Positions 4,759 through 21,164 of a DNA stretch of 42,405 nt are shown in pieces. Within the stretch, counting starts at the first letter, position 1. Every line of letters starts with the position of its first letter. Location: positions 1 through 42,405 of the forward strand of contig JBILQJ010000013.1 in the NCBI GenBank assembly GCA_044373325.1, written 5' to 3'. The translations under genes were made by a program, and so were the position numbers. This DNA is from Burkholderiales bacterium. GTDB taxonomy: Bacteria; Pseudomonadota; Gammaproteobacteria; Burkholderiales; JBILQJ01. The notes below the pieces were generated by a model. That model was not told the DNA's origin. It was given only the letters and a program-made list of their open reading frames with translations, and ran no database searches.

Positions 4759-4987
4759 GATTTTTCCTTTTTAAAAATTTAAGGGTTTAAATGGGTTAAT
4801 TTACAGCTGAAAACAGCGATGAAAAGTTGCAATCACCTTGTTTTTATATCGACAAGTAATGATGATGTCCTGATTATAGCCAAATGTTAAGAATACTCCA
4901 GCTTTAATGTAAAATAATTTGATAAAAATTGTATTTGTTCTTGCTTTAGTTGAGTTGTTTTTATTTAAATCTTTGATTTTTAATCAG

Positions 4988-5037
4988 TTGTGGTCAATAT
5001 TTTTATCCGAAAATTGGGCAAAAAGGTTGGCCGCACG
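4988..5037. repeat. palindromic element copy 2 (left arm decayed)
   Basis: TTGTGGTCAATATTTTT-[atccgaaaattgggc]-AAAAAGGTTGGCCGCAC. Confidence 0.6.
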
Positions 5038-5317
5038 ATTTCTAATCGGTGAATTCTGCTGGTAGAATAAGGCTAGGGTTTCCACTTTTGGCATTACAAA
5101 AAAATGAGTTTTGTGACTAAGCGCTTAAACATCGGCGGCAGTAGCGCGTTAAAGTGGCTTATGAACTGGCTTGCTAAAATAAGGCTAGCCCAGTCATTTT
5201 TTGCTTACCAAGGCGTTGGGTTTTTTTGGTTCGCGCGATTTTTTTATCACGATATGTCGGTTTCAAGTGTAGGATAGTTTTTTACCTGCATCCGCGCATA
5301 TTAACGAGGAGACACAC

Positions 5318-6961
5318 ATGCCCGCCTATACCGATAAAACAAAGCTCAATCTTACTTATTTTCAAACCCAATCACTCAACATGCCTCAATTTAAAAAAAT
5401 GGCCTTGGCGTTTGTGGTTTTGGCTGCGACGGCCAATTTAGCGCAAGCCGCTGGCACTTTGGTGTATTGTTCGGATGCCAGCCCTGTTTTTTTTGATGGC
5501 GCGCAATCGAATTCAGGTACCGATTTTAATGCGGGTTCTCGCGCCATGTTTGATACTTTGCTGGCTTACAAGCCAGGGACTACCGAATTGATTCCGAGTT
5601 TGGCTAAAACATGGGACATTTCAGCGGATGGCAAAACCTATATTTTTCATTTGCGCGAGGGCGTAAAGTTTCACACCACCGATTATTTTAAACCCACGCG
5701 CACCTTGCAAGCCGAAGATGTGGTGTTCAGTTTTGGGCGCATGGTCAATCCGCAGCACCCCGCCAATAAAGTTTATCCTGTTGAATATCCTTATGTGGTT
5801 TCTACGGGCTTGAGGGCGAATATTGCGTCCATTAAAAAAATCGATGCCTTGACGGTTGAATTCAAATTAAAAGAAGTCGATGCGCCATTTTTGTCTAAAG
5901 TGGCGATGGCTTTTGCTGCGATACAATCGGTCGAGTACGCGCAACAATTGGCTAATGCGGGGCGGTTGTCCGATATCAATCACAAGCCAATCGGTACGGG
6001 GCCATTTGTGTTCGGCAGTTACGTCAAAGATGAGGTCATTCGTTACAACGGCAATGTTGAGTATTGGAATCCTGCGGCGATTAAATTGGATAAATTGGTC
6101 TTTGCAATTACCAAAGATGCGGCGGTGCGTTCGCAAAAGCTGACTAAAGGCGAGTGCGATTTGATTGCCAACGCCAATCCTGCGGATATTGCCGCAATGA
6201 AAGCCCATCCTGCTTTAAAAATAGAAACGGGTACTTCGCTCAACGTGGCTTATGTGGCTTACAACACTGAAAAAGCCGAGTTGAAAAATCCGCTGGTGCG
6301 GCAAGCGTTAGATCTGGTCATCGACAGGCAAGCCATTGTTGCGGCGGCTTATCAAGGCTATGCCAAATCGGCGGCCAGCTTTTATCCGCCCATTTTGTGG
6401 TCGCACAATCGCAGCCTCAAAAACGCGGCAGCCGACCTCACCAAAGCCCGTGCTTTGTTGGCCAAAGCAGGTTATCCAAATGGTTTTGAAACCGATTTAT
6501 GGGCTTTGACCAGTAATCCGATTCGCAAAATCACCGCCGAATTAATCCAAGCTGATTGGGCAAAAATTGGTGTAAAAGCGAACATTGTGACCTTTGAATG
6601 GGGCGAATTTTTAAAGCGCATCAAACAAGGCGAGCACAAAACCACGTTGATGGGTTGGACGGCGGATTATGCCGACCCCGATGGATTTGCCAGCCCTTTA
6701 TTGACCTGTAAAGCCGTTAATGGCGTGAATTTTGCACGCTATTGCGCCCCAGAATTTGAAGCATTAGTGAATAAAGCTGTAAATATCACCAACGTGGCCG
6801 AACGAACCCAGCTTTACGAACTAGCGCAAACGGTGTTTAAAGCCGATTTGCCTTGGTCGCCCATTGCCTACGCTTCGATTAATCAACCCATGCGAAAAAT
6901 GGTGCAAGGCTTTAAAGTGGGTGCTTTTGGTGAATATGATTTCCGTTATGTGAGTAAATAA
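5318..6961 (+). CDS. dppA: ABC transporter substrate-binding protein, DppA family (family 5 SBP), paralogue 1
   Basis: Signal peptide MPQFKKMALAFVVLAATANLAQA followed by AGTLVYCSDASP...; DppA-like throughout (E. coli DppA KTLVYCSEGSPEGF...). The ATG at 5318 has a strong SD (GAGGAG-6nt-ATG) but gives a 21-aa N-terminal extension; alternative ATGs at 5381 and 5399 have no SD. Confidence 0.85.
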   Translation: MPAYTDKTKLNLTYFQTQSLNMPQFKKMALAFVVLAATANLAQAAGTLVYCSDASPVFFDGAQSNSGTDFNAGSRAMFDTLLAYKPGTTELIPSLAKTWDISADGKTYIFHLREGVKFHTTDYFKPTRTLQAEDVVFSFGRMVNPQHPANKVYPVEYPYVVSTGLRANIASIKKIDALTVEFKLKEVDAPFLSKVAMAFAAIQSVEYAQQLANAGRLSDINHKPIGTGPFVFGSYVKDEVIRYNGNVEYWNPAAIKLDKLVFAITKDAAVRSQKLTKGECDLIANANPADIAAMKAHPALKIETGTSLNVAYVAYNTEKAELKNPLVRQALDLVIDRQAIVAAAYQGYAKSAASFYPPILWSHNRSLKNAAADLTKARALLAKAGYPNGFETDLWALTSNPIRKITAELIQADWAKIGVKANIVTFEWGEFLKRIKQGEHKTTLMGWTADYADPDGFASPLLTCKAVNGVNFARYCAPEFEALVNKAVNITNVAERTQLYELAQTVFKADLPWSPIAYASINQPMRKMVQGFKVGAFGEYDFRYVSK

Positions 6962-6985
6962 CCCTGTCTTTTTTATGACTAACCC

Positions 6986-7033
6986 TTGCGGCCAACCTTT
7001 TTCTGAAAAATCAGGGAAAAAGGTTGGCCGCAA
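6986..7033. repeat. palindromic element copy 3
   Basis: TTGCGGCCAACCTTTTTCTGAAAAATCAGGGAAAAAGGTTGGCCGCAAG, preceded by the shared 20-bp flank CTTTTTTATGACTAACCCTTG (6968-6988). Confidence 0.95.
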
Positions 7034-7145
7034 GAGTTCTCAACATTAATAAACAAGACAAAACCGCTTTCATTGCGCTAAAATGGCGCGTTTTAAGCGA
7101 CAATGTGTCATTTTGCACCATCAACCCTCATTTTTGAAAGTTTTT

Positions 7146-8531
7146 ATGAACGAACTCTTGAGCAAATTCATTCCGATTATTTTCGCTATTTTATTCCTCA
7201 GCTTGATTGTTTATGTCGCGGTGTTGATTTTTAAACTGCGCCGAGTGGTGCCAACCAATGAAGTGCACATTATCCAATCGAGCAAAACCACCATGTCGTA
7301 CGGCAAAGACACCGAAAACGGCAACACCTATTATGAGTGGCCATCTTGGATGCCAAAAATCGGTTTGACCAAAATCATTTTGCCCGTCAGCGTGTTTGAT
7401 TTGGACTTGCAAGACTACGAAGCTTATGACAAAGGGCGCTTGCCGTTTGTTGTGGATGTGAAGTCCTTCTTTCGCATACACGACTCCAACCTTGCGGCGC
7501 AACGCGTGGCCTCATTTGACGACTTAAAAAGCCAACTTAAAGCCATTGTACAAGGCGCGGTGCGCACCATTTTGGCCTCCAACGAAATTGAAGCCATCAT
7601 GCAAGGGCGATCGGAGTTTGGCGAAGCATTTACCTCCGAAGTCAGAGAGCAGCTCACCAATTGGGGCGTGGTTCCTGTCAAAAACATTGAATTAATGGAC
7701 ATTCGCGACGCGACGGACAGTCAAGTGATACACAACATCATGGAAAAGAAAAAATCCCTGATTGAAATGCAAAGCCGCTCAGAAGTGGCCGAAAATATGA
7801 AAACCGCCAAAGTCGCCGAAATCAACGCCAAGCGTGAAACCGAAGTTCAGGAACAAGACGCCATCCAAAAAGTGGGCGAGCGCAAAGCCGAAACCGACAA
7901 AGCGGTTGGGATTGCCAATGAAAAATCCACTCAAGAAATTGCCGAACAAGTCAAAATCACCAAAGAACGCCAAATGGAAGTGGTGAAAGTGACTGAAGTC
8001 AAGCAAGCCGAAATCACCAAAGAAGTGCAATTGGTCAAGGCCGAACAAGACAAGCAAACCAGCATTATTAACGCCGAAGCGGCCAAGCAAAAACTCATGA
8101 TTGTGGCGGAGGGCGAAAAGCAAAAAACCGTTTTGGATGCGGAAGGGTTGCTCGAGTCCAAACAACGTGAATCGCAAGGGATTGCGCTGGAAGGTCAAGC
8201 TCGCGCAGATGCAGAAAAAGCCATGCAATTGGCGCCCGTTCAAGCGCAAATCGTGTTGGCCAACGAAATTGGTAGCAACGACAAATATCAGCAGTATTTG
8301 TTGGCGGTTGAACAAATTAAAGCCAATCAAGTTGTGGGTGTCGAACAAGCGCGTGCGCTTGAGAAAGCCGACATTAAAATTATTGCCAACACCGGCGATG
8401 TCAGCTCTGGCATCAGCAATTTGGGCGATGTTTTGAGCTCAAAAGGCGGTACGTCATTGGCGGCAATGCTTGAAGGTTTGTCGCAAACCGACGCTGGCAA
8501 AGCATTGGTGAATAAAATTTCGGGGAAGTAA
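7146..8531 (+). CDS. flotillin/SPFH (band 7) domain protein, YqiK/FloT-like
   Basis: N-terminal TM helix (FIPIIFAILFLSLIVYVAVLIF), an SPFH core, then a long E/A/K/Q-rich coiled coil (flotillin tail). The start is taken at the internal ATG (MNELLSKF); the track ORF begins 21 codons earlier. Confidence 0.8.
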   Translation: MNELLSKFIPIIFAILFLSLIVYVAVLIFKLRRVVPTNEVHIIQSSKTTMSYGKDTENGNTYYEWPSWMPKIGLTKIILPVSVFDLDLQDYEAYDKGRLPFVVDVKSFFRIHDSNLAAQRVASFDDLKSQLKAIVQGAVRTILASNEIEAIMQGRSEFGEAFTSEVREQLTNWGVVPVKNIELMDIRDATDSQVIHNIMEKKKSLIEMQSRSEVAENMKTAKVAEINAKRETEVQEQDAIQKVGERKAETDKAVGIANEKSTQEIAEQVKITKERQMEVVKVTEVKQAEITKEVQLVKAEQDKQTSIINAEAAKQKLMIVAEGEKQKTVLDAEGLLESKQRESQGIALEGQARADAEKAMQLAPVQAQIVLANEIGSNDKYQQYLLAVEQIKANQVVGVEQARALEKADIKIIANTGDVSSGISNLGDVLSSKGGTSLAAMLEGLSQTDAGKALVNKISGK

Positions 8532-8584
8532 TCGGTTTTTATCACACGTTTGAATCTGAGTGAGCTTTGTTTTTTTATGACTAA

Positions 8585-8638
8585 CCCTTGTGGCCAACCT
8601 TTTTCTGAAAAATCAGGGGAAAAGGTTGGCCGCAAGGG
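8585..8638. repeat. palindromic element copy 4
   Basis: CCCTTGTGGCCAACCTTTTTCTGAAAAATCAGGGGAAAAGGTTGGCCGCAAGGG, with the same 20-bp 5' flank (8571-8590) as copy 3. Confidence 0.95.
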
Positions 8639-8725
8639 TTTTGTGTTGTTGGCGTTTAAACTGCGTTAGAATAGTGGTTTTTTCTAGCGCTAAAAACAAG
8701 GGCTAGTCAACACAGGCGATGAACC

Positions 8726-10405
8726 ATGATTTCTTTTTTCAAACGCCATAAAGCGAGTCACGCATTTTCGACCCGCTTGCCTCCCAAACCCGCCACTTTT
8801 TTGAACACACACGCCCCACTGCTTTTCTTTGCGTTGGTGTTTACGGTTTTTTTTAATGTCACTTTTTTTAAGAAATTGCTGGCGCTGTACGCTTTGCCCC
8901 AAAATTTAGGCTTTGTGATTTCGGTGACTTTGTGCCTTTTTTTTGTGCATGCTTTGTTGTTGGGGCTGGTGTGTTGGGGGCGAGCGCGGCAATGGCTGCT
9001 GGCTGGATTGATTGTTGTTGGTGGTTTTTCTGCGTATTACATGGACAATTTTCGGGTGGTCATTGATCAAATTATGTTGGTGAATGCCGTGCAAACCAAT
9101 CCTGCTGAGGCGGCCGATTTGTTGACGTGGCGCTTGTTGCTGTATGTGGTTTTTTTGGTGATTTTGCCCATCATTTTGTTGATAAAAACCCCTTGGCCAC
9201 GCGCCACTTTTGTGCGGGGTTTAAAACACAGGCTGGTGTATTTGTTGTTGTGTTTATTGGGTTTTGTGTTGGGCGTGTTGCCCGCGTATTCGCATTATCC
9301 CAGCTTTTTACGCCAGCATAAAATGGTGCGTTTTTATTCGAATCCAATCACGCCGATTTATTCGGCGGTGCAATTTGCCCGTCATCTGATACCCAAAGCA
9401 ACCGTGATTGCGCGGGTGTTAGATCACAACCCTAAAGCGGATCAAAATGAGGGGCATCGTGAGTTGGTGATTTTGGTGCTGGGCGAAACGGCACGCGCCG
9501 ATCGATTCTCGCTCAATGGCTACAAGCGATACACCAATCCCTTGTTGTCGAATGAAGCCAACGTGATTAGCTTGCCCAATCTCAGTTCTTGCGGCACCAG
9601 CACGGCGGTTTCTGTGCCGTGTATGTTTTCGGCTTTGCCGCGCGAGTCCTTTTCTGATGAAGCCTTTAAAGCCGAAGAAAATGTCATAGACGTGTTGGCA
9701 CGAGCTGGCGTTAACGTGTTGTGGCGGGATAACAATTCGGACAGTAAAGGTGTGATGAGTCGTTTTACGATAGAAAATTACAAAGAACCCGCACTGAATT
9801 CGGTTTGTGACGTGGAATGTCGCGATGAAGGGATGTTGGTGGGTTTGCAAAAGTACATCGATTCGCACCCTAAAGGCGATATTTTGATTGTGTTGCACGC
9901 CATGGGCAGCCACGGGCCTGCTTATAGTAAACGTTATCCCAAAGCCTTTGAACAGTTTAAGCCTGCTTGCGACACGGTACAGATTGAACAATGCGACAAA
10001 GCGTCCATTGACAACGCTTATGACAACACGATTTTATACACCGATTATTTTTTGAGTGAAACCATTGCTTTGCTCAAGGCAAATTCGCCTAAATTTGAAG
10101 CGTCTATGATATACATGAGCGATCATGGCGAATCTTTGGGCGAAAATGGCTTGTATTTACACGGCTTGCCGTATGCGTTAGCACCCCAAGAACAAAAAAA
10201 TCCTGCGGCTTTAGTGTGGTTTAGCGACGGCGCTTTGGCAGACAACACCGAAGCAAAAAAATTTGAGACCTTAAAAAAACAAGCCTCGCATCCGTATACT
10301 CACGATAATTTATTTCACAGTTTGTTGGGCTTGTTTGAAGTGCAAACCAGCGTTTATCGCCCAGAGTTAGACGTCTTTGACGCGCGTAGCAGCGCCGCGC
10401 CTTAA
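8726..10405 (+). CDS. eptA: phosphoethanolamine--lipid A transferase (EptA/LptA/MCR family)
   Basis: 559 aa; five N-terminal TM helices plus a periplasmic sulfatase-type domain. Motifs align almost residue-for-residue with MCR-1 and Neisseria LptA: VLGETARADRFSLNGY, CGTSTAVSVPCMFS, WRDNNSDSKGVM, HAMGSHGPAYSKRYP, YMSDHGESLGENGLYLHG. Confidence 0.92.
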   Translation: MISFFKRHKASHAFSTRLPPKPATFLNTHAPLLFFALVFTVFFNVTFFKKLLALYALPQNLGFVISVTLCLFFVHALLLGLVCWGRARQWLLAGLIVVGGFSAYYMDNFRVVIDQIMLVNAVQTNPAEAADLLTWRLLLYVVFLVILPIILLIKTPWPRATFVRGLKHRLVYLLLCLLGFVLGVLPAYSHYPSFLRQHKMVRFYSNPITPIYSAVQFARHLIPKATVIARVLDHNPKADQNEGHRELVILVLGETARADRFSLNGYKRYTNPLLSNEANVISLPNLSSCGTSTAVSVPCMFSALPRESFSDEAFKAEENVIDVLARAGVNVLWRDNNSDSKGVMSRFTIENYKEPALNSVCDVECRDEGMLVGLQKYIDSHPKGDILIVLHAMGSHGPAYSKRYPKAFEQFKPACDTVQIEQCDKASIDNAYDNTILYTDYFLSETIALLKANSPKFEASMIYMSDHGESLGENGLYLHGLPYALAPQEQKNPAALVWFSDGALADNTEAKKFETLKKQASHPYTHDNLFHSLLGLFEVQTSVYRPELDVFDARSSAAP

Positions 10406-10431
10406 GCCCTGACGAGTGAGTGTGCAGTACT

Positions 10432-10493
10432 TTGCGGCCAACCTTTTTATCTTGATTTTCATGACGAAAAACAGGAAAAAAGGTTGGCCGCAA
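10432..10493. repeat. palindromic element copy 5 (33-nt loop)
   Basis: TTGCGGCCAACCTTTTTAT-[cttgattttcatgacgaaaaacagg]-AAAAAAGGTTGGCCGCAA. Confidence 0.9.
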
Positions 10494-10709
10494 CGGTTTC
10501 CTTACAAAAAAATGAGTGTTTTAACAAATTTATTATATAAAAATGCCAGCAAATGGCGATGGTTGGACCGAGAGCTTTTTAAAATATAGAAAATAGACTT
10601 ACTAATAAATTGGTTGCGGTGTCACACTGGTTTTTTGTGGTGGCCTGTCTCGGCGTGCTTAGCGTAAGATTGGTTTTCTTAACAAAAAGTTAACCCAAAG
10701 GAGAAGACG

Positions 10710-12308
10710 ATGCAAATCAGCGTCAAAAAACTGGCAACTGTTTTGAGTGTTTTGGTTTTGGCCACTTCGGCGCACTGGGCGATCGCCGACAAAGGCACTT
10801 TTGTGTATTGTTCGGAAGGCAGCCCTGCTGGGTTCGATTCTTCGCAATATACATCGGGTATTGATTTTAATGCAGGCGCTTACGCCCTATTTGATAAATT
10901 GGTGGCGTACAAACCCGGCACTTCAGAAATCATACCCAGCTTGGCCGAAAGTTGGGACGTGTCGCCCGATGGAAAAACATACACGTTTCATTTGCGCCCC
11001 AATGTCCAGTTTCATAGCACCGATTATTTTAAACCCACGCGCAATTTTCAGGCTGAAGATGTGTTATTTACCTTTGGGCGCATGATTAAAAAAGATCACC
11101 CATCTAACCGCTTGTACCCAGCCGAATACCCCAACGCGGTGGATATGGGTTTGACGCGCAACATCGTTTCCATCAAAAAAATAGATAATTTGACCGTTGA
11201 ATTTAAGCTGCAAAAAGTCGATGCGCCGTTTTTGAAAAAAATCGCAGTGCCCTTTGCGATGATACATTCGGCGGAATACGCGCAACAATTGGCCAACCGT
11301 GGGCAATTGGCTCAACTCAACCAAAAACCCATAGGCACAGGGCCGTTTATTTTTAGTAGTTACGCTAAAGATGAGGCCATTCGTTATCTTGGCAATAAAA
11401 ACTATTGGGACGCTGACGCGGTGAAAATTGATAAATTGGTTTTTTCTATCGTGCCTGATGCTGCTGTGCGCTATCAAAAAATGAAAAAAGGTGAATGCGA
11501 TTTAATCGGCACGCCCAACTTTACCGACATTGATGCCATGCGGAAAGAGCCTGATTTTAAAGTACAAGATGCCACGGGCGTGAATATCGGTTATTTGGCC
11601 TATAATACCGAAAAACCAGAAACCAAAAAACTGGCGGTACGTCAAGCCTTGGACATGGCCATCAATCGCCAAGCTTTGGTTGAAGCAGCGTATGGCAATC
11701 AAGGGGTTGTGGCCATTAACCCGTATCCAGCCGCTTTGTGGTCGCACAATACCAGCGTAAAAAATGCACCTTTTAATGTCGAAAAAGCCAAAGCTTTGTT
11801 GGCTCAAGCAGGCTATCCCAATGGTTTTGAAACCGACCTTTGGACGACGACGCACGACAAATCTTGGCGCAGAATGGCCGAAATGATACAAGCCGATTGG
11901 GCAAAAATTGGCGTTAAAGCCAACATCGTCAGCTACGAAACGGCGGAGTTTTTAAAGCGCATTAGCTTGGGCGAATACACGACGACTTTGTCTTCTTGGG
12001 GCGGTGGCTATGCCGATCCTGACCATTTTTTAGGCACGTTGTTGACCTGTCGTGCAGTGGGTGGTTCGAATGTGGCGCGTTATTGTTCTGCCGAATACGA
12101 TGCCTTGGTCGAAAAAGCGGTGACTCTGACCAATCAAACCGAGCGAAGCAAACTTTACGAACAAGCGCAAGTCCTTTTAAAACGCGATTTGCCATGGACA
12201 ACCTTGACGCACACCGCACGTAACCAGCCTATGCGCAAGTCGGTGCAAGGCTACAACGTCAGCCCTTCAGGTTCTCGAGATTTTCGTTACGTGAGTAAAT
12301 CGGAATAA
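10710..12308 (+). CDS. dppA: DppA-family substrate-binding protein, paralogue 2
   Basis: 532 aa; signal peptide MQISVKKLATVLSVLVLATSAHWAIA; SD AAGGAGAAG; paralogous to 5318..6961 along its whole length. Confidence 0.9.
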   Translation: MQISVKKLATVLSVLVLATSAHWAIADKGTFVYCSEGSPAGFDSSQYTSGIDFNAGAYALFDKLVAYKPGTSEIIPSLAESWDVSPDGKTYTFHLRPNVQFHSTDYFKPTRNFQAEDVLFTFGRMIKKDHPSNRLYPAEYPNAVDMGLTRNIVSIKKIDNLTVEFKLQKVDAPFLKKIAVPFAMIHSAEYAQQLANRGQLAQLNQKPIGTGPFIFSSYAKDEAIRYLGNKNYWDADAVKIDKLVFSIVPDAAVRYQKMKKGECDLIGTPNFTDIDAMRKEPDFKVQDATGVNIGYLAYNTEKPETKKLAVRQALDMAINRQALVEAAYGNQGVVAINPYPAALWSHNTSVKNAPFNVEKAKALLAQAGYPNGFETDLWTTTHDKSWRRMAEMIQADWAKIGVKANIVSYETAEFLKRISLGEYTTTLSSWGGGYADPDHFLGTLLTCRAVGGSNVARYCSAEYDALVEKAVTLTNQTERSKLYEQAQVLLKRDLPWTTLTHTARNQPMRKSVQGYNVSPSGSRDFRYVSKSE

Positions 12309-12312
12309 GCCT

Positions 12313-12362
12313 TTGCGGCCAACCTTTTTTAAGCCATTTCTCTGTTAAAAGGTTGGCCGCAA
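12313..12362. repeat. palindromic element copy 6
   Basis: TTGCGGCCAACCTTTTTTAAGCCATTTCTCTGTTAAAAGGTTGGCCGCAA, 5 bp after the dppA2 stop. Confidence 0.95.
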
Positions 12363-12532
12363 CCTGAACGGTTGTTTGTTTTTACTTTAATTTACCCAAA
12401 AATCAAAAAATGTTATATCTTTTGGCTGTTGAACGGTGGCAAGGTTCAACAGGTTTGAACTTTGCGCAATGAATCATTTTAGGGCGCGGGGCTTCTTTTT
12501 GAGGATTAATTTTTTGATGGGTTAAGATAAAA

Positions 12533-14146
12533 ATGAACGTTCAATTCAAAAAAATAGCAGTTGCCTTAAGCGTATTGGGCGCGTTGGGCGCGACCAGTTC
12601 GGCCATCGCAGCCGGAACTTTAGTTTATTGTTCTGATGCAAGTCCTGCTGGATTTGACGTGGCGCAGTTTACTGCTGGCACCGATTTCGACGCGGGCGCA
12701 CGCACCATGTTTGACAGCTTGTTGGCCTACAAACCGGGCACAACAGAAATGATTCCTGCTTTGGCCGAAAAATGGACGATTTCCGAAGATGGCAAAACGT
12801 ACACGTTTCAGTTGCGTACTGGCGTGAAGTTTCACACGACCGATTACTTTACGCCGACTCGTGATTTGCAAGCCGAAGATGTCATTTTTACCTTTGGGCG
12901 CATGATTAAAAAAGATCACCCGTCTAACCAAGCCTATCCTGCACAGTTTCCGTATGCAGGTTCTTTGGGCTTGGACAGCAACATTCTTTCGATTAAAAAA
13001 ATCGACAACTTAACGGTTGAATTTAAATTAAAAGAAGTTGATGCGCCATTTTTGGCCAAAATTGCCATGGATTTTGCGTCCATTCAATCGGTTGAATACG
13101 CACAAAAACTGGCGAATGCCGGGCGATTGGCCGAAATTAATCAAAAACCCATCGGCACGGGGCCTTTTGTGTTTAGCAGTTACACCAAAGACGAAACCAT
13201 CCGTTACACCGCCAATCCCAATTATTGGAATAAAGCAGCGGTTCAGTTGGATAAGTTGATTTTTTCAATCAACAAAGAAGCCTCTGTGCGCTATCAAAAG
13301 CTGAAAAAAGGCGAGTGTGATATTTTGGCTTATCCCAACCCCAGTGACGTGGCTGAAATGAAAAAAGATGCCACTTTGAAGGTGGACAGCGCGCCGGGCT
13401 TTAGCGTGGGTTATGTGGCTTACAACACTCAAAAAGCCGAAATGCAAAAACGAGAAGTACGACAAGCGTTAGACATGGCCATTAATCGTAAAGCCATCGT
13501 CGAGGCGGTGTATCAAGGTCAAGGCCAAGAAGCGACTAACCCTTTTCCACCTTCTTTGTGGTCGTACAATACCACGCTCAAAAATGCGCCTGTTGATATC
13601 ACGAAAGCCAAAGCTTTATTGGCCAAAGCAGGTTATCCAAATGGCTTTGAAACCGAGCTTTGGGCGATGCCAGTGCAACGCGCTTACAATCCCAACGCCA
13701 AATTAATGGCCGAAATGATACAAGCCGACTGGGCAAAGATAGGCGTTAAAACCAAAATCGTGAGCTTTGAATGGGGCGAATATTTGAAGCGCGCTCGCAA
13801 GGGCGAACACACAGCGGGGTTATTTGGCTGGTTGGGCGATTTTGCTGACCCAGATAATTTTTTGGGCGTGTTATTGACTTGTAAGTCAGTAGGCGGCCCG
13901 AATTATGCGCAATATTGTTCGCCAGAATTTGATGCCTTAGTCAATAAAGCCGCCCGCACCACCGACGTGGCCGAGCGGACAAAATTGTACGAAGAAGCGC
14001 AGGTGATTTTCAAACGCGATTTGCCGTGGACTACCATCGCCCATTCGACGGTTAATCAACCCATGCGCAAAGAAGTGATGGGCTTTAAAATCAGCCCTTT
14101 TGGTAATTATGACTTCCGTTATGTGAGTAAATCCGCCAGCAACTAA
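12533..14146 (+). CDS. dppA: DppA-family substrate-binding protein, paralogue 3
   Basis: 537 aa; signal peptide then AAGTLVYCSDASPAGFD; closest to paralogue 4 (shared IKKDHPSN, QGQGQEA, NPNAKLMAEMIQADWAKIGVKTKIV). Confidence 0.9.
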   Translation: MNVQFKKIAVALSVLGALGATSSAIAAGTLVYCSDASPAGFDVAQFTAGTDFDAGARTMFDSLLAYKPGTTEMIPALAEKWTISEDGKTYTFQLRTGVKFHTTDYFTPTRDLQAEDVIFTFGRMIKKDHPSNQAYPAQFPYAGSLGLDSNILSIKKIDNLTVEFKLKEVDAPFLAKIAMDFASIQSVEYAQKLANAGRLAEINQKPIGTGPFVFSSYTKDETIRYTANPNYWNKAAVQLDKLIFSINKEASVRYQKLKKGECDILAYPNPSDVAEMKKDATLKVDSAPGFSVGYVAYNTQKAEMQKREVRQALDMAINRKAIVEAVYQGQGQEATNPFPPSLWSYNTTLKNAPVDITKAKALLAKAGYPNGFETELWAMPVQRAYNPNAKLMAEMIQADWAKIGVKTKIVSFEWGEYLKRARKGEHTAGLFGWLGDFADPDNFLGVLLTCKSVGGPNYAQYCSPEFDALVNKAARTTDVAERTKLYEEAQVIFKRDLPWTTIAHSTVNQPMRKEVMGFKISPFGNYDFRYVSKSASN

Positions 14147-14174
14147 ACCCGAGCAATCAGGGCAAATAAACATA

Positions 14175-14229
14175 TTGCGGCCAGCCTTGCCGAGTTTTTC
14201 GTCAAAAACATTAAAAAGGTTGGCTGCAA
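14175..14229. repeat. palindromic element copy 7 (both arms mutated)
   Basis: TTGCGGCCAGCCTTGCC...AAAAAGGTTGGCTGCAA. Confidence 0.7.
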
Positions 14230-14409
14230 CTTTATGGCGAATTTGGCTTGCACTGCAACATAAAAAAGCGCTTGCCAATAGAATGTGCTTGTTATATTGT
14301 CTTGCCTTCAATTTTTAGATGGCTTATCAGCCCTTATGTCATAAATGATAGGCTTTTTTGTCTATGGCGCATACGCGCAAAGATTTTTACATCATAAAAA
14401 GGAAGAAAC

Positions 14410-15999
14410 ATGAAAATTAAAAAAATAGTCAGCGCCCTAGCGTTGTTGGTAGCCAGCACATCAGCGATGGCCGCTGGCGGCACGTTGGTCTATTGTTCTG
14501 AAGGCAGTCCTGCTGGGTTTGATGTGGCTCAATTTACATCAGGTACCGATTTTGATGCGGGCGCACGCACCATGATGGATAACTTGATTGCCTACAAAAA
14601 AGGCACAACAGAAATGGTGCCTGCGTTGGCTGAAAAATGGGACATTTCAGAAGATGGTAAAACTTACACTTTCCATTTACGCCCTAACGTTAAGTTCCAC
14701 ACAACAGAGTATTTTACGCCCACTCGTGACTTACAAGCCGAAGACGTGATTTTTAGCTTTGGGCGCATGATAAAAAAAGATCACCCGTCTAACAAATTTT
14801 ACCCAGCCGAATTTCCTTACGCAACGGATATGGCCTTGGATACCAATATTGTTTCTATTAAAAAAATCGATAACTTAACGGTTGAATTTAAATTAAAAGA
14901 AGTCGATGCGCCGTTCTTGGCCAAATTGGCCATGGCCTTTGCGTCGATTCAATCGGTGGAATACGCGCAACAATTGGCCAGCGCAGGTAAGTTGTCTGAT
15001 TTAAACCAAAAGCCCATCGGTACGGGGCCGTTTGTGTTTAGCAGTTACGAAAAAGACAGCACCATCCGTTACAACGCCAATAAAAATTATTGGAACCCAG
15101 CCGATGTTAAAGTCGATAAATTGATTTTTTCTATCACCAAAGATGCGGCCGTGCGTTATCAAAAATTGAAAAAAGGCGAGTGCGACATTTTGTCTTATCC
15201 TAGCGTCAGCGATTTGGCTGAAATGAAAAAAGATACGGCTTTAAAAGTGGACAGCGCCCCTGGATTCAACATTGGCTATGTGACGTATAACACCGAAAAA
15301 CCAGAAATGAAGAAGCTAGAAGTCCGTCAAGCATTGGACATGGCGATTAATCGCAAAGCCATTATTGATGCGGTTTATCAAGGTCAAGGTCAAGAAGCGA
15401 GTAATCCATATCCGTCTTCTTTGTGGTCGTATAACCCTGCCTTGAAAAATGCACCGCTGGACATCGCCAAAGCCAAAGCCCTGTTGGCCAAAGCAGGCTA
15501 TCCAAATGGTTTTGAAACCGACCTTTGGGCGATGCCCGTTTCGCGTCCTTACAATCCAAATGCCAAATTAATGGCCGAAATGATACAAGCCGATTGGGCG
15601 AAGATAGGCGTAAAAACCAAAATCGTGACCTTTGAATGGGGTGAGTATTTGAAACGCCTAAGACAAGGTGAACACATGGCGGCTTTGGTGGGCTGGACGG
15701 GCGATTATGCTGACCCAGATAATTTCTTGGGTGTGTTGTTGTCGTGCAAAGCCGTTGGTGGTTCTAACTATTCGCGCTATTGTTCTAAACCTTTTGATGA
15801 GTTAATCAACAAAGCGGTTGCAACCACCAATGTTGCTGAACGCACCAAATTGTACGAAGAAGCACAAGTCATCTTCAAACAAGAGTTGCCTTGGTCTACC
15901 ATTGCGCATTCAACCACCAACCAACCCATGCGCAAAGAATTGACAGGATTCCACATCAGCCCCTTTGGTGATTATGATTTCCGTGGCGTGAGTAAATAA
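14410..15999 (+). CDS. dppA: DppA-family substrate-binding protein, paralogue 4
   Basis: 529 aa; MKIKKIVSALALLVASTSAMAAGGTLVYCSEGSP; SD AAAGGAAG. Confidence 0.9.
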   Translation: MKIKKIVSALALLVASTSAMAAGGTLVYCSEGSPAGFDVAQFTSGTDFDAGARTMMDNLIAYKKGTTEMVPALAEKWDISEDGKTYTFHLRPNVKFHTTEYFTPTRDLQAEDVIFSFGRMIKKDHPSNKFYPAEFPYATDMALDTNIVSIKKIDNLTVEFKLKEVDAPFLAKLAMAFASIQSVEYAQQLASAGKLSDLNQKPIGTGPFVFSSYEKDSTIRYNANKNYWNPADVKVDKLIFSITKDAAVRYQKLKKGECDILSYPSVSDLAEMKKDTALKVDSAPGFNIGYVTYNTEKPEMKKLEVRQALDMAINRKAIIDAVYQGQGQEASNPYPSSLWSYNPALKNAPLDIAKAKALLAKAGYPNGFETDLWAMPVSRPYNPNAKLMAEMIQADWAKIGVKTKIVTFEWGEYLKRLRQGEHMAALVGWTGDYADPDNFLGVLLSCKAVGGSNYSRYCSKPFDELINKAVATTNVAERTKLYEEAQVIFKQELPWSTIAHSTTNQPMRKELTGFHISPFGDYDFRGVSK

Positions 16000-16018
16000 C
16001 ATCACCAACAGAGTGATT

Positions 16019-16077
16019 TGTGGCCAACCTTTTTAAGTGGTACTTGTTTTGTTTTTACTAAAAAGGTTGGCCGCAGT
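16019..16077. repeat. palindromic element copy 8
   Basis: TTGTGGCCAACCTTTTTAAG-[tggtacttgttttgtttttact]-AAAAAGGTTGGCCGCAG. Confidence 0.9.
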
Positions 16078-16105
16078 ATTGAGATGTCGCCTTGTGCTAA
16101 AAGTC

Positions 16106-16160
16106 GTTGGCCATTTTGTTGAGGCCAACCTTTTTGTTTTTGGCTGAAAACCAAGGCGCG
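16106..16160. repeat. decayed palindromic element copy 8b
   Basis: GTTGGCCATTTTGTTGAGGCCAACCTTTTTG...AAGGCGCG; the right arm is largely deleted. Confidence 0.5.
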
Positions 16161-16198
16161 TTATTGAATGATGTGGTTCTTTTTGCGGTGGATATCTT

Positions 16199-17227
16199 AT
16201 GTTTGCTTTTGCTTTTCGGCGTTTGTTTACGCTCATTCCAACGTTTTTTGGCATTACACTGTTGTCGTTTGTGTTGATTCATTCCATACCGGGAGACCCT
16301 GTTGAGGTCATGATGGGTGAAAAAACGGTTGACCCTGTGTTGCACGCACAAGCCTTAAAACGCTTGGGGCTGGATTTGCCTTTGCCCGAACAATATTGGA
16401 ATTACCTCAAACAGTTGGCTCATGGCGACTTAGGCACGTCTTTTCGCACGCAAAATCCTGTTTGGGCAGATTTTAAAATTGCCTTTACAGCCACGGCTGA
16501 ATTGGCGATTTTTGCGTTGACTTTGGCGGTTGTGTTGGGCTTGATTTTGGGGGTGACGGCGGCGGTTAAACGCGGTTCTATTTTTGATCATGGCGTGATG
16601 ACCTTGGCGCTCACAGGTTACTCTATGCCCATTTTTTGGTGGGGCTTGATGGCCATGATGTTTTTCTCGGTTTATTTGGGCTGGTTGCCTGTGTCTGGGC
16701 GTTTGGATTTGATGTTTGACATTCCGCGCGTGACGGGTTTTATGTTAATCGACAGTTTTTTGGCCGAAAACGCGCACCCATTAGAAAATAAAGGCGCATT
16801 TAAAGATGCGGTGATGCATTTGATTTTACCTGCCATTGTGTTGGGCACGAACTCTTTGGCCATTATTGCGCGCATGACGCGTTCGGCCATGTTGGAAGTG
16901 TTAAAAGAAGATTACATCCGAACCGCTAAAGCCAAAGGCTTGTCGCCGCTGCGCGTGATTTTTGTCCACGCTTTGCGCAACGCCTTAATCCCTGTGATTA
17001 CGATTATTGGTTTGCAATTGGGTGGCATTTTTAGTGGCGCTGTGTTGACTGAAACCATTTTTTCTTGGCCTGGTATCGGTACGTGGTTGGTGAACGCCAT
17101 TGGGCAACGTGATTATCCCATCGTACAAAGTGGCATTTTGATTATTGCGACTCTGGTGATATTGACCAATTTCATGGTGGATTTGTTGTACGGTGTTGTT
17201 AGCCCTCGCATTCGTCATGAAAAATAA
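16199..17227 (+). CDS. dppB: dipeptide ABC transporter permease DppB
   Basis: 342 aa; ~60% identical by eye to E. coli DppB (IPTFFGITLLSF, RGSIFDH, GYSMPIFWWG, EDYIRTAKAKGL, SWPGIG, LLYGVVSPRIRH). Confidence 0.93.
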   Translation: MFAFAFRRLFTLIPTFFGITLLSFVLIHSIPGDPVEVMMGEKTVDPVLHAQALKRLGLDLPLPEQYWNYLKQLAHGDLGTSFRTQNPVWADFKIAFTATAELAIFALTLAVVLGLILGVTAAVKRGSIFDHGVMTLALTGYSMPIFWWGLMAMMFFSVYLGWLPVSGRLDLMFDIPRVTGFMLIDSFLAENAHPLENKGAFKDAVMHLILPAIVLGTNSLAIIARMTRSAMLEVLKEDYIRTAKAKGLSPLRVIFVHALRNALIPVITIIGLQLGGIFSGAVLTETIFSWPGIGTWLVNAIGQRDYPIVQSGILIIATLVILTNFMVDLLYGVVSPRIRHEK

Positions 17228-17239
17228 AGGATATTTTAA

Positions 17240-18187
17240 ATGAATCAAACGGTTAAATTAGAAAGCTCTCCCAACACCACCAACCAAGTTGACACGACTG
17301 CCCCCGATTTTGTGCCGACACATCCTTCACCACTGCGTGAATTTTGGGCGACTTTTAGTCAAAACAAAGGCGCGGTCATCGGCTTGTGTTTGTTTGCGGT
17401 TTTGTTGTTTTGCGCCATATTTGCGCCCATTCTTGCGCCGCACGACCCCATCGAACAATACCGCGATTTTATGTTGACCCCGCCAAGCTGGACAGAAGGT
17501 GGCAATCCGCAATTTTTATTAGGGACAGATGAAGTGGGGCGCGATATTTTGTCGCGTCTGATGCACGGGGCGCAATTGTCTATGGGTGTGGGATTTATTT
17601 CTGTCATTCTTTCCATGATACCGGGCATTATTTTAGGTTTGGTTGCGGCGTTTTTTCCTAAATACATAGGCGCATTCATCATGCGCGTGGTTGACATTAC
17701 GATGGCATTCCCCTTTTTGTTGTTGGCGATTGTGATTGTAATTGTGCTGTCACCGTCTTTGGCGACCACTGTGGTGGCCGTGTCTATCGTGAATTTGCCC
17801 GCCTATGTGCGCATGATGCGCGCTGAAGCCATGAGCCAAATGAATCGCGATTACGTGATGGCCAGTCGCGTGTCGGGCGCTGGGTTGTTGCGCATTATGT
17901 TTGTGTCGGTGTTGCCCAATTGTATGGCACCGTTGATTGTGCAAGGCACGATGGGCTTTTCTTCGGCCATTTTAGAAATTGCGGCTTTGGGCTTTTTGGG
18001 CATGGGCATACAACCGCCAGCGGCAGAATGGGGCACCATGTTGTCCAGCGCGCGCGATTACATCAGCAGCGCTTGGTGGGTGGTGACTTTCCCAGGGATT
18101 ACCATTTTAATTTCGGTTTTGTCGATTAATTTGATGGGAGATGGCTTGCGTGATGCGCTAGACCCTAAAATGAAAAAAATAGGTTAA
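17240..18187 (+). CDS. dppC: dipeptide ABC transporter permease DppC
   Basis: 315 aa; LREFWATFSQNKGAV, LGTDEVGRDILSRLMHGA, NRDYVMASRVSGAG and WWVVTFPG match E. coli DppC. Confidence 0.93.
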   Translation: MNQTVKLESSPNTTNQVDTTAPDFVPTHPSPLREFWATFSQNKGAVIGLCLFAVLLFCAIFAPILAPHDPIEQYRDFMLTPPSWTEGGNPQFLLGTDEVGRDILSRLMHGAQLSMGVGFISVILSMIPGIILGLVAAFFPKYIGAFIMRVVDITMAFPFLLLAIVIVIVLSPSLATTVVAVSIVNLPAYVRMMRAEAMSQMNRDYVMASRVSGAGLLRIMFVSVLPNCMAPLIVQGTMGFSSAILEIAALGFLGMGIQPPAAEWGTMLSSARDYISSAWWVVTFPGITILISVLSINLMGDGLRDALDPKMKKIG

Positions 18188-18260
18188 GGCCAGCAGCCTT
18201 TAAAGTTGATTTTCAGACACAAGGTTGGCCGCAAGCGTATTGCCTGCTGCGGCCAACCTT
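18188..18260. repeat. composite palindromic element (1.5 copies) between dppC and dppD
   Basis: Decayed left arm AAGGCCAGCAGCCTTT, then spacer, then AAGGTTGGCCGCAAGC-[gtattgcct]-GCTGCGGCCAACCTT. The last two arms form a tight hairpin in the inverted configuration. Confidence 0.8.
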
Positions 18261-18304
18261 GAACGGGTTTCGATACTGAACGATTTGGATATTTGGAGTG
18301 GCGC

Positions 18305-19291
18305 ATGAGTTTATTAAATATAAAGAACCTTTCGGTTCAGTTTGGGTCAAAAAGCAACCCTTTTAAAGCCGTTGATGGCTTAGATTTGAGCGTGGCGCAA
18401 GGCGAAGTGGTTGGGATAGTCGGGGAATCGGGTTCGGGTAAATCGGTGACCATGATGGCCATGATGGGCTTGCTCGATGGGCAAGGCCGCATTTTGGCTG
18501 ATGAAATGCGGTTTGATGGCAAAGATTTGCAAGCACTAAGCGCCAAAGAACGCCGCAAAATCATGGGCAAAGACATTGCCATGATTTTTCAAGATCCCAT
18601 GACCAGTTTAAACCCCAGTTTTACGGTGGGCTATCAAATTGAAGAAGTCTTGAAATTGCATCAAGGTTTGCGCGGAGCGGCTTTAAAAAAACGCTTGTTA
18701 GAATTGATGAATCAAGTGGAAATTCCAGCGCCCGAATCGCGTTTGTCGGCGTATCCGCATCAATTGTCGGGCGGCATGAGCCAGCGGGTGGCCATCGCCA
18801 TGGCCATTGCGTGCCAACCTAAATTATTGATAGCGGACGAGCCAACCACGGCTTTGGACGTGACGATACAAGCCCAAATCATGAGCTTGTTGGTGAATTT
18901 GCAAAAAGAAAACAACATGAGTTTAATTATGATTACTCATGATTTGGCGGTGGTGGCCGAAGTGGCGCAGCGCTTGGTGGTCATGTATGCAGGGCAACAA
19001 GTCGAAATGGGCAACGTGCCTGATATTTTCCGCAAGCCCGCCCATCCTTATACCGAAGCTTTGTTGGCTTCTATTCCCGAACGCAGCAAAGGGGCGCACC
19101 GCTTAAGCACCTTGCCGGGCATTGTGCCGGGGTTGTACGACAGACCAAAAGGTTGTTTGTTGTCACCCCGTTGTCCGCACGTACAAGCCCAATGCCACGA
19201 AAAAGTGCCAGCTTTTGAATCATATGGACAAAGTTCGGCGCGGTGTTTTTATCCTTTGAATCTTGATGTTAATCAGAAAGTGAGCGCCTAA
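18305..19291 (+). CDS. dppD: dipeptide ABC transporter ATP-binding protein DppD
   Basis: Start moved to MSLLNIKNL (SD GGAG, 6 nt before the ATG). Walker A GESGSGKS, signature LSGGMSQRV, and the oligopeptide C-terminal domain. Confidence 0.92.
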
Positions 19292-19292
19292 T

Positions 19293-20261
19293 ATGCCCCA
19301 TCCAACGTTAGTCATGGAAGTGGAGAATCTGGCTCGCCATTATGAGATTTCTACGGGCTGGTTTAAACCCAAAGCAACGGTTAAAGCGTTAAATGGCGTT
19401 TCTTTTAAGTTGGCCGCAGGCAAAACTTTGGCGGTGGTGGGCGAATCGGGTTGCGGTAAATCGACCTTGGCGCGTCAACTCACGCTCATCGAATCGCCTT
19501 CGTCAGGCAGCATAGTGCTAGACGGCGTGCCCGTCAACACCGCTACGGCGGCAGAAATCAAAGCCATGCGCAGCAAAGTACAAATGGTATTTCAAAATCC
19601 TTACGGTTCTTTGAATCCACGCCAAAAAATCGGCGATCAATTGGCTGAACCTTTGTTGATGAACACGCCTTTGACTGCGCCAGAAAGAAAAGCGCGCGTG
19701 TTGGAGATGATGAAAATTGTTGGCCTGCGTGCCGAGCATTATCATCGCTATCCGCATATGTTTTCGGGCGGTCAACGTCAACGCATCGCCATTGCGCGCG
19801 CCATGATGTTGCACCCTAAAATTGTGATTGCGGACGAACCGACCAGTGCGCTGGACGTTTCCATACAAGCGCAAGTGTTGAATCTTTTCATGGATTTGCA
19901 GCAAGAATTAAAAACGGCGTATGTTTTTATTTCGCACAATTTATCGGTGGTTGAACACGTGGCCGATGAGGTGATGGTGATGTATTTGGGGCAAGTGGTT
20001 GAAATGGCGACTAAAACCGATTTGTTCGCAAACCCCAAACACCCGTACACAAAAGTGTTGTTGTCGGCGACGCCTTCTTTGTTTGAAGAAGATCGCAAAA
20101 TCAACATCGCCATCAAGGGCGAATTGCCCAGCCCATTGAATCCGCCGTCGGGTTGCGCGTTTCACAAACGTTGCCCTTACGCCGTGGCGCGTTGCCAAAC
20201 TGAAACGCCCGTCTTGCGCGAATTAGACGGGCATCAAGTCGCTTGTTTCGAGGCAAAATAA
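19293..20261 (+). CDS. dppF: dipeptide ABC transporter ATP-binding protein DppF
   Basis: 322 aa; GESGCGKST, FSGGQRQRIAIARA and YVFISHNLSVVEHVADEVMVMYLG are near-identical to E. coli DppF. The ATG lies 1 nt after the dppD stop. Confidence 0.93.
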   Translation: MPHPTLVMEVENLARHYEISTGWFKPKATVKALNGVSFKLAAGKTLAVVGESGCGKSTLARQLTLIESPSSGSIVLDGVPVNTATAAEIKAMRSKVQMVFQNPYGSLNPRQKIGDQLAEPLLMNTPLTAPERKARVLEMMKIVGLRAEHYHRYPHMFSGGQRQRIAIARAMMLHPKIVIADEPTSALDVSIQAQVLNLFMDLQQELKTAYVFISHNLSVVEHVADEVMVMYLGQVVEMATKTDLFANPKHPYTKVLLSATPSLFEEDRKINIAIKGELPSPLNPPSGCAFHKRCPYAVARCQTETPVLRELDGHQVACFEAK

Positions 20262-20290
20262 GCGGGGCTTGCCTTCCTGATACAAACTCC

Positions 20291-20340
20291 TTGCGGCCAA
20301 CCTTTTTCCCTATTTTTTGGGGTAAAAGGTTGGCCGCAAG
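20291..20340. repeat. palindromic element copy 10
   Basis: TTGCGGCCAACCTTTTTCCCTATTTTTTGGGGTAAAAGGTTGGCCGCAAG. Confidence 0.95.
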
Positions 20341-20370
20341 GGATTTTTTGAACCGAAATAAAAGCGCCTG

Positions 20371-20928
20371 TTATGGTGCGGTGTTTTTCTTGACTTCTAC
20401 CGCTTTGATTTTGTAAGAAGAAAGCCCTGTTCCCGTGGCCACTTGGGTGCTGCTTTTTTCTACTGTCATTTGGCCAGATACCCAAACCGTGTCCATGGCG
20501 TTGAGGTCTTTGATGGGTGTGGCGGCGGTGACGTAAATGATTTGATTTGATGGTGGTGGCGGTGTGTGGATGCAGGCGCCATAAAAAGGCACTAACAAAA
20601 ATTGCGTGACGTCTTTGCCTTTAAATTCGACAGGCACAACATAACCCGAAATTTTAAGGGCTTTGCCATTGAGCTCGGGGTTGATGGGCGCGTTAGACCA
20701 AGCTTTTTTCAAGTCGTCTAAAGCAGCTTGGGCGCGTGGGTCGTTGTCTTTCATGGTGGAATAATCAATGTCTTTGAACGCTTTGGTTGGGTCCCAATCT
20801 TTGGGCATTAATTTATCCCAATTGACAACGGGGTAAGTCGGTGCGGCATAAATGGGTGAACTCACCGCGCCTAGCGTGAGGCAAAGGAGTCCGACTAAAA
20901 AAAAATAAGAGCGAGAAAAGTAACTCAT
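20371..20928 (-). CDS. DUF3299-family secreted/lipoprotein
   Basis: 185 aa; signal peptide MSYFSRSYFFLVGLLCLTLGAVSSPIYA; the FYGACIHTPPPPSNQ motif characteristic of DUF3299; SD AAGGA. Confidence 0.7.
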   Translation of the reverse strand: MSYFSRSYFFLVGLLCLTLGAVSSPIYAAPTYPVVNWDKLMPKDWDPTKAFKDIDYSTMKDNDPRAQAALDDLKKAWSNAPINPELNGKALKISGYVVPVEFKGKDVTQFLLVPFYGACIHTPPPPSNQIIYVTAATPIKDLNAMDTVWVSGQMTVEKSSTQVATGTGLSSYKIKAVEVKKNTAP

Positions 20929-20966
20929 GTGTTGTCCTTTTTAAAAGTTGAGTGAAAAAGTTGAAT

Positions 20967-21164
20967 TTAGAGTAACCAAGAGACTAAAAACTCTTTAAAA
21001 ACATAACCCGTCACGCCCAGCCCTAAGGCCAAAAACATGATGGCTGTGCCGATTTTACCCGCTTGAGATTGTTTGGCCAGTTGCCAAATAATAAAACCCA
21101 TAATGAGGATTAAACCTGCCGGCAAAATGGTGAGTGATAAGTTAGAAAATTCGGCTTCTGTCAT
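20967..21164 (-). CDS. small two-TM membrane protein (65 aa)
   Basis: Good SD (CAAGGACA-5nt-ATG); two hydrophobic helices; co-oriented with the DUF3299 gene and 38 bp upstream of it. Confidence 0.55.
   Translation of the reverse strand: MTEAEFSNLSLTILPAGLILIMGFIIWQLAKQSQAGKIGTAIMFLALGLGVTGYVFKEFLVSWLL

Follow-up and report, generated by a model that had tools for sequence, protein, structure and literature searches.

Serving one ATP-binding cassette (ABC) translocator with several binding proteins is a known bacterial route to broader import by a single transporter. The dipeptide transporter DppABCDF of Escherichia coli (1DPP, 8Z1Y; PMC12136057) has one binding protein, DppA, in which R383 and D436 (precursor numbering) hold the dipeptide by salt bridges at its carboxyl and amino ends and also dock onto E41 and R42, two residues of DppB's scoop loop; the R383D+D436R double mutant abolishes binding (PMC12136057). 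Pseudomonas aeruginosa carries dppA1–dppA4 by dppBCDF, with other genes interspersed, and a distant dppA5 (PMC4206461, PMC12728205). DppA1 and DppA3 of this species favor dipeptides, and DppA2 and DppA4 favor tripeptides; its Dpp system is studied for such broadening of import and as a way into the cell for peptide-conjugated 'Trojan horse' antimicrobials (PMC12728205). In the HbpA2 clade of the Pasteurellaceae, the Asp that binds the amino terminus is replaced, which was taken to rule out dipeptide ligands (PMC3295651). Here, we analyzed a dpp locus in which four dppA paralogs (A1–A4) adjoin one dppBCDF. It lies in the contig JBILQJ010000013.1, a complete metagenome contig of 42,405 bp that is referred to below as the window. 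The host is an uncultured freshwater Neisseriaceae bacterium, and near-identical NCBI proteins carry the label 'MAG: Neisseriaceae bacterium' (MAG, metagenome-assembled genome).

The account that we favor, and hold to be probable, is that of an old dppA expansion with four functional binding proteins, which would share DppBCDF and widen its substrate range, and with hairpins at the 3' ends of the genes that resemble REPINs, the hairpin-forming doublets of REP (repetitive extragenic palindromic) elements.

Results

Four DppA-type genes adjoin a single dppBCDF

Genes were called by NCBIfam and Pfam profile scores together with the list of open reading frames (ORFs), and the region was found to comprise ten plus-strand genes: A1, an SPFH gene, an eptA-like gene, A2, A3, A4, dppB, dppC, dppD and dppF (Table 1). 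The initial annotation had described four tandem DppA paralogs feeding one DppBCDF, with the P. aeruginosa locus as precedent. Its four full-length genes do start at 5318, 10710, 12533 and 14410, they adjoin a single dppBCDF (16199–20261), and the precedent is real, with several DppA paralogs and one permease (PMC4206461, PMC12728205). However, only three of the four genes are tandem. Immediately upstream of dppBCDF come A2, A3 and A4, which are preceded by the SPFH gene (7083–8531) and the eptA-like gene (8726–10405), both of which follow A1. The latter is located 3.7 kb upstream of the array and 9 kb upstream of dppB, behind these two unrelated genes. The upstream spacer of each paralog measures 200–300 bp, and no further fragments of DppA or other substrate-binding proteins (SBPs) were found in the 42-kb window. 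The P. aeruginosa locus likewise has several DppA genes upstream of a single DppBCDF and unrelated genes among them; these are mdpA, psdR and opdP instead of eptA and the SPFH gene. Among 80 related genome loci, the dpp locus contains one to four dppA copies: Crenobacter and most Paraburkholderia have two, Pelistega has three (on a contig that stops before dppB) and Pseudomonas of the P. nitroreducens type has four.

Profile scores and the phylogenetic tree described below indicate that all four copies are DppA-type proteins. DppA is the top NCBIfam family for each of them (517, 513, 619 and 645 bits for A1–A4), with scores below the cut-off of 1005 bits set for the DppA equivalog NF043070, and the Pfam domain SBP_bac_5 (PF00496, cluster C fold) matches all four with E values of 1e-97 to 1e-107. 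The second NCBIfam match is SapA in every case (376–419 bits, under the cut-off of 560), and the adjacent permease genes score highest as DppB, DppC, DppD and DppF rather than as parts of a Sap system. Scores for NikA (168–200 bits; TIGR02294 cut-off 393) and CntA (103–131 bits; cut-off 800) were far lower, and GsiB and OppA likewise fell far short of DppA. The possibility, raised initially, that the copies belong to nickel or opine binders was not borne out, as DppA scores highest and the four proteins are nested in the DppA tree; glutathione GsiB, OppA and SapA were ruled out on the same grounds. In a comparison with solved structures (Protein Data Bank, PDB) that covered A1, A2 and A4, the E. 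coli DppA chains (8z1y/1dpp) matched A4 over its full length with E = 9e-178, A2 with 8e-140 and A1 with 3e-140. E. coli DppA is the top solved relative of A1 and A4, and for A2 it ties with its close relative GbpA (3m8u). A4 is the copy nearest to the DppA of other bacteria, with 66–68% identity to the proteins of Vogesella, Aquitalea and Chromobacterium (68% for Vogesella or Aquitalea). In a scan of a genome collection, the representative genomes nearest to A2 (Leeia, Crenobacter, Vogesella and several Comamonadaceae) reached at most 55–56%.

The dipeptide-anchoring residues differ among the copies

The locus shares with the E. coli system the order of dppBCDF, a charged scoop loop in DppB (E41-K42 in the window, E41-R42 in E. 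coli) and, in A3 and A4, both R383 and D436, the numbering of which was confirmed on an alignment to chain 8z1y_F. It differs in having four DppA proteins instead of one, all under the DppA equivalog cut-off, and in lacking one or both anchors in A1 and A2. The anchors are found in PVQRAYNPNA and GWLGD of A3 and in PVSRPYNPNA and GWTGD of A4. Since the Arg and Asp dipeptide clamps are kept, ordinary dipeptide binding is predicted for A3 and A4. D436 is present in A1, where a 4-residue deletion takes the place of the R383 loop. In A2, D436 is changed to Gly (SWGGGY) and the R383 loop is altered as well. Differing specificities are plausible because these two ligand-anchoring residues differ between the copies; the ligand ranges of the four proteins are thus likely to differ, and A1 and especially A2 most likely bind other ligands.

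Outside the window, 248 homologs were compared, 131 of them ORFs of the 80 genome loci and 117 representing clusters; 230 have both anchors. The other 18 are seven members of the A1–A4 clade, two extra copies without the Asp, in Albidiferax and Pelistega, and nine deep paralogs (~42–46% identity) without the Arg, of which eight belong to Pseudomonas-type loci and one to Chitinimonas. Two relatives of A2, the metagenome proteins P0007 and P0009, lack both the Arg and the Asp. The locus of P. nitroreducens resembles that of the window in that two of its four copies lack the R383 loop, as do A1 and A2. E. coli DppA and the five P. aeruginosa proteins all reportedly conserve the Asp (PMC12728205), which is lost in A2. 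The nearest parallel for this loss is the HbpA2 clade, a group of DppA/GbpA homologs in which the same Asp is replaced; there the change is to Arg and not to Gly, the lineage is a different one, and A2 has an altered Arg loop in addition.

An Asp anchor lost next to a retained Arg loop was observed at positions 8052–9659 of locus L010 (an Albidiferax MAG, Ala) and 9995–11593 of L050 (Pelistega indica, Gln). Loss of the Asp in extra copies of other multi-copy dpp loci hints at recurrent re-targeting of surplus copies.

Age of the expansion and selection on its members

A neighbor-joining tree (50 sequences, 530 columns, 100 bootstraps) placed A1–A4 together with the metagenome proteins P0005–P0009 in a monophyletic group (bootstrap 100), sister to a canonical DppA group that includes proteins of Vogesella, Leeia, Crenobacter and Hydrogenophaga. 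Within this group, A1 pairs with P0007 (bootstrap 100) and A2 clusters with P0008 and P0009 (bootstrap 71); the duplications that gave rise to A1 and A2 therefore predate the split from those relatives. A3 and A4 form the youngest pair, and the initial observation that the genes at 12533 and 14410 are the most similar was confirmed by pairwise comparison, with 79% amino acid identity as against 61–65% for every other pair. The synonymous divergence (dS) between paralogs is saturated at 1.1–1.6 and exceeds 1.1 in every pair, and therefore none of the duplications is recent. Transfer from Pseudomonas-type loci was excluded as well, the four copies being a clade of their own inside betaproteobacterial DppA. 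The Pseudomonas copies differ from those of the window, which form one clade with 61–79% identity, in that they include two deep branches at ~42%. Judged by the tree and the dS values, A1–A4 are an old, lineage-specific expansion within betaproteobacterial DppA, and one that arose independently of Pseudomonas and arrived at the same known arrangement.

Pseudogenization of the copies, another possibility considered at the outset, was excluded: each ORF is intact in the window, and so is its counterpart in the strain contigs as far as these cover it (full length for copies 1–3 and, for copy 4, the first 463 amino acids up to a scaffold gap), no extra fragments were found, and the ratios of nonsynonymous to synonymous divergence (dN/dS) of three copies lie between 0.02 and 0.10. 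Between the window and the strain contigs, dN/dS is 0.098 for A1 (contig L084), 0.024–0.029 for A2 and 0.045 for A3, values comparable to those of dppB and dppC. Purifying selection is strongest on A2 among the tested copies A1–A3; A4 fell outside this test owing to a 100-N scaffold gap in the strain contig. In that contig (L083, 4308–5876), the run of 100 N breaks the A4 ortholog, which was hence missed by the gene caller; it is a scaffolding gap and not a pseudogene. The order of the locus is kept in the strain contigs L083, L084 and L085, L083 spanning eptA-A2-A3-A4-dppBCDF. More distant relatives have tandem arrays in other orders: A2-like, A1-like and A3-like in L086, and A4-like and A2-like in L082.

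A repeated hairpin at gene ends and rearrangement at its copies

The arms of the palindromes in the locus consist of a sharply bounded 16-nt word, yTGCGGCCAACCTTTT, and both the loops (7–44 nt) and the flanks are unrelated between copies. The window contains 33 half-sites (~0.8 per kb) in both arm orders; at up to two mismatches, 32 were counted where 0.34 would be expected. All but one (32 of 33) are intergenic, and coding sequence makes up 85% of the window. The half-sites pair into ~17 hairpin doublets with folding energies of −27 to −49 kcal/mol and z-scores of −4.4 to −9; single half-sites, at 5020, 25958 and 35436, have decayed partner arms.

The initial annotation had noted a palindromic copy behind every dppA paralog and had taken this co-occurrence to suggest duplication by repeat-driven unequal recombination and/or differential stabilization of mRNA. 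The copies are indeed present (6981–7038, 12313–12362, a degenerate one at 14175–14229, and 16019–16075), but they do not mark dpp genes. Of 19 intergenic gaps that measure 100 bp or more and include the 3' end of a gene, 15 carry the word, which also follows, among others, the SPFH gene, eptA, dppC, dppF, eno, fabF, rne and the heptosyltransferase gene. A copy after each dppA is expected from this background, because most comparable gaps carry the word: at the rate observed outside the dppA gaps (11 of 15), the probability that all four of the latter carry it is ~0.29. Gaps without the word carry other, unique hairpins (2187–2218, 3985–4020, 24990–25025, 28427–28483 and 30764–30809), some with A/T-run flanks that resemble bidirectional terminators, and the repeat hairpins seem to fill the same niche as ordinary terminators.

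Rearrangement at copies of the repeat did occur in this locus. Two direct copies of ~70 bp (6966–7038 and 8568–8640), alike in loop and 5' flank, lie on either side of the SPFH cassette. Strain contig L084 (7855–8016) lacks the SPFH gene and has a single copy there, flanked on the left by the end of A1 and on the right by the eptA leader. This difference would be explained by recombination between the copies that deleted the cassette, or else by its insertion at a copy. It is unlikely, though, that unequal crossing-over between palindromes flanking an ancestral dppA also built the tandem array and so left a copy at each junction. The array has the repeat-gene-repeat layout that such a process predicts (10432, A2, 12313, A3, 14175, A4, 16019), copies lie between tandem paralogs in related organisms as well (L082 and L086), and the SPFH cassette demonstrates recombination or insertion at direct copies. 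Yet junction copies are to be expected anyway, the duplications are old, neither loops nor flanks are related among the junction copies, and the paralog order differs in the same relatives, with no readable duplication junction left. A repeat-driven mechanism for the dppA duplications is possible but unsupported, and the earlier reasoning from co-occurrence does not hold.

Neighborhood of the locus and the detached copy A1

The genes around the dpp locus are those of an ordinary chromosome (rpsD-rpoA-rplQ, a CpxRA-like pair, eno, a heptosyltransferase gene, kdsA, xerD, hemF, fabF, glyA and rne), and a convergent gene (20371–20928) lies beyond dppF. The gap between dppC and dppD is unusually long, about 105–117 bp, and holds one of the hairpins (18220–18261).

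Table 1 Features of the dpp locus, in window coordinates
Feature	Position	Strand	Evidence
dppA paralog 1 (A1), detached from the array	5318–6961	+	NCBIfam DppA, Pfam SBP_bac_5
REPIN-like hairpin after A1, left direct copy at the SPFH cassette	6981–7038		−38 kcal/mol
SPFH/Band-7 (flotillin-like) gene, non-dpp, presence/absence cassette	7083–8531	+	Profile matches; strain contig L084 without the gene
REPIN-like hairpin, right direct copy at the SPFH cassette, loop and 5' flank as in the copy at 6981	8583–8640		Word scan, folding
EptA-like phosphoethanolamine-lipid A transferase gene, non-dpp, parts A1 from the array	8726–10405	+	NF028537, 610 bits, above cut-off
REPIN-like hairpin after eptA, upstream of A2	10432–10493		Word scan, folding
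dppA paralog 2 (A2), both dipeptide anchors lost	10710–12308	+	NCBIfam, Pfam, PDB match
REPIN-like hairpin after A2; a small stem and T-run come next (12359–12385)	12313–12362		Word scan, folding
dppA paralog 3 (A3), canonical anchors	12533–14146	+	NCBIfam DppA, Pfam SBP_bac_5
Degenerate REPIN-like hairpin after A3, left arm with 4 mismatches	14175–14229		Folds at −27.5 kcal/mol
dppA paralog 4 (A4), canonical anchors	14410–15999	+	NCBIfam, Pfam, PDB match
REPIN-like hairpin (16019–16075) and third arm (16120–16135) after A4	16019–16135		Word scan, folding
dppB permease gene	16199–17227	+	Profile matches
dppC permease gene	17240–18187	+	Profile matches
Hairpin of the same word, opposite arm order, no T/A runs, inside the operon between dppC and dppD	18220–18261		Word scan, folding
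dppD ATPase gene, TTG start (alternative ATG at 18305)	18293–19291	+	Profile matches
dppF ATPase gene	19293–20261	+	Profile matches
REPIN-like hairpin at the operon end, followed by a U-run, shared with the convergent gene 20371–20928	20284–20346		−43.5 kcal/mol

A two-component pair similar to CpxA/CpxR (2794–4758, minus strand) is divergent from A1 and near the eptA-like gene, with which it may form a module for envelope stress or polymyxin-type resistance that is interleaved with the dpp genes. This neighborhood opens another explanation, in which some paralogs, chiefly A1, would be sensory or protective binders (for example, SapA-like binders of antimicrobial peptides) tied to the CpxRA-like system and EptA and would not be partners of DppBCDF. 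A1 does lie between the CpxA/CpxR-like pair and eptA, SapA is the second NCBIfam match of all four copies, and DppA proteins of P. aeruginosa have been reported in chemotaxis and signaling (PMC12728205). Nevertheless, the SapA scores fall under their cut-off and well under those of DppA, A1 is nested within the DppA clade, its ortholog in L086 is part of a plain tandem dppA array without eptA, and the eptA/SPFH neighborhood varies between strains, all of which makes this explanation improbable.

The start of A1 is ambiguous. The ATG at 5318 has a GAGGAG Shine-Dalgarno sequence and adds ~21 residues ahead of a signal peptide that starts near residue 22–28; an internal Met (5381) is Ile in the strain variant P0004, and the N-terminal extension is not kept in the ortholog of a relative. 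A search for motifs shared upstream of the paralogs returned a single A-rich 16-mer, TTACAAAAAAATGAGT, which lies upstream of both A1 (5093–5108) and A2 (10502–10517), the paralogs with altered pockets. It could be a common operator or a chance match in A-rich DNA.

Affiliation of the repeat and possible role of the hairpins in RNA

REPINs were described as invariant 16-mers that form inverted doublets with a less conserved spacer, fold into hairpins, are extragenic and give rise to singlets by decay (PMC3116915). The repeat of the window resembles them in its 16-nt word, its inverted hairpin doublets, its extragenic position, its decayed singlets and its high density; it differs in that the spacer is short and very variable (7–44 nt) and not of a characteristic length. 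No Rfam family was detected at the gathering score anywhere in the window, and a string search of the literature for the word returned unrelated primer matches only. The word also occurs in contigs L082, L086, L087 and L088–L094 and is identical in relatives whose DppA orthologs are only 64–71% identical, and a scan for the hairpin pattern found it in seven short metagenome contigs that do not overlap the window, showing that the repeat is dispersed in related genomes. Contig L090 carries five hairpins in 1.45 kb. The word was absent from all 80 loci of cultured or representative genomes. The palindrome is probably an undescribed and very dense REPIN-like repeat, that is, a genome-wide extragenic doublet of the 16-nt word.

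The word might instead be a DNA uptake signal of the Neisseriaceae lineage, analogous to the DUS/USS sequences and, like these, often found as inverted pairs 3' of genes. Its density, sharply bounded core, unrelated flanks and loops, two arm orders and identity in relatives with divergent DppA orthologs would suit such a signal, as would the absence from the window of known DUS dialects (zero copies of eight dialects). The DUS dialects are words of 10–12 nt, frequent within genes as well, that share a CTG core which the 16-nt word lacks, and DUS/USS are not known to be excluded from coding DNA as strongly as this word, with one half-site in 33. With so few coding half-sites in a window that is mostly coding, and with a decayed partner arm at every single site, which makes the hairpin doublet the unit and is the REPIN signature (PMC3116915), an uptake signal is highly improbable.

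U-runs follow the hairpins at 16120–16135, 20284–20346 and 38453–38491, as well as the small second stem at 12359. After A4, the third arm (16120–16135) forms a second hairpin that is followed by TTTTTGTTTTT, a T-run, ahead of dppB; this second hairpin and TTTTTGTTTTT are likely to be an attenuator or terminator. REP elements downstream of malE (malE-malF) and hisJ (hisJ-hisQ) protect the upstream mRNA and attenuate read-through. Such REP-like protection and attenuation would therefore yield more binding protein than permease, and mRNA stabilization or termination by the hairpins of the window is a reasonable hypothesis.

Discussion

We propose that one ancestral dppA was duplicated repeatedly and long ago within the host lineage, which would have given rise to four functional periplasmic binding proteins. 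A1 would have become detached once eptA and, in some strains, the SPFH gene came between it and the array, while A2, A3 and A4 stayed directly upstream of the single DppBCDF translocator that all four would serve. A1 and A2 would deliver other ligands (for example longer peptides, peptides with blocked ends or non-peptides) to DppBCDF and so widen its substrate range, as DppA1–DppA4 do in P. aeruginosa. The 3'-end hairpins would terminate, attenuate or stabilize mRNA, such that the binding-protein genes are expressed above, and separately from, the permease genes, and the palindrome copies would also act as recombination substrates.

Several points weigh against this proposal. Strict orthology with E. 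coli DppA is not established, because none of the four proteins reaches the equivalog cut-off. The alignment is ambiguous around the 4-residue deletion, and an Arg or Lys close by (NPIRK in A1, SWRR in A2) might stand in for R383. The distance of A1 from dppB, and its position beside the CpxRA-like system and eptA, make another role possible. The single dppBCDF is known from 42 kb of the genome, and other Dpp- or Opp-type permeases are possible elsewhere. As for the repeat, no gene for a RAYT (REP-associated tyrosine transposase) is present within the 42-kb window, which leaves its membership among REPINs incomplete. In the common arm order, the hairpins at 6981, 10432 and 14175 have no U-run behind them, and most of this kind lack a U-tail. 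A scan of 4700–21300 for promoter and terminator consensus sequences gave no enrichment over shuffled sequences; it missed the repeat hairpins, the loops of which exceed 8 nt, and neither favors nor contradicts a role in attenuation or stabilization.

A2 has lost both anchors, and yet none of the tested copies is under stronger purifying selection. This contrast invites a further, tentative reading, in which the DppA family has here radiated into proteins that no longer recognize a free peptide backbone. DppBCDF might then be a hub that imports, alongside ordinary dipeptides, a class of ligands new to Dpp, for example a non-peptide compound or peptides that are end-blocked or gamma-linked.

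The repeat is of interest mainly as what is probably an undescribed, very dense REPIN-like family. For the transporter, this freshwater lineage of uncultured Neisseriaceae would offer an independent and compact example of several binding proteins converging on one translocator. A1–A4 are 61–79% identical and nevertheless differ at the two residues that define dipeptide binding, and may thus represent a natural series for the minimal re-targeting of a DppA pocket. The same comparison carries a lesson for annotation, namely that 'DppA' labels on extra copies can mask proteins incapable of canonical dipeptide binding.

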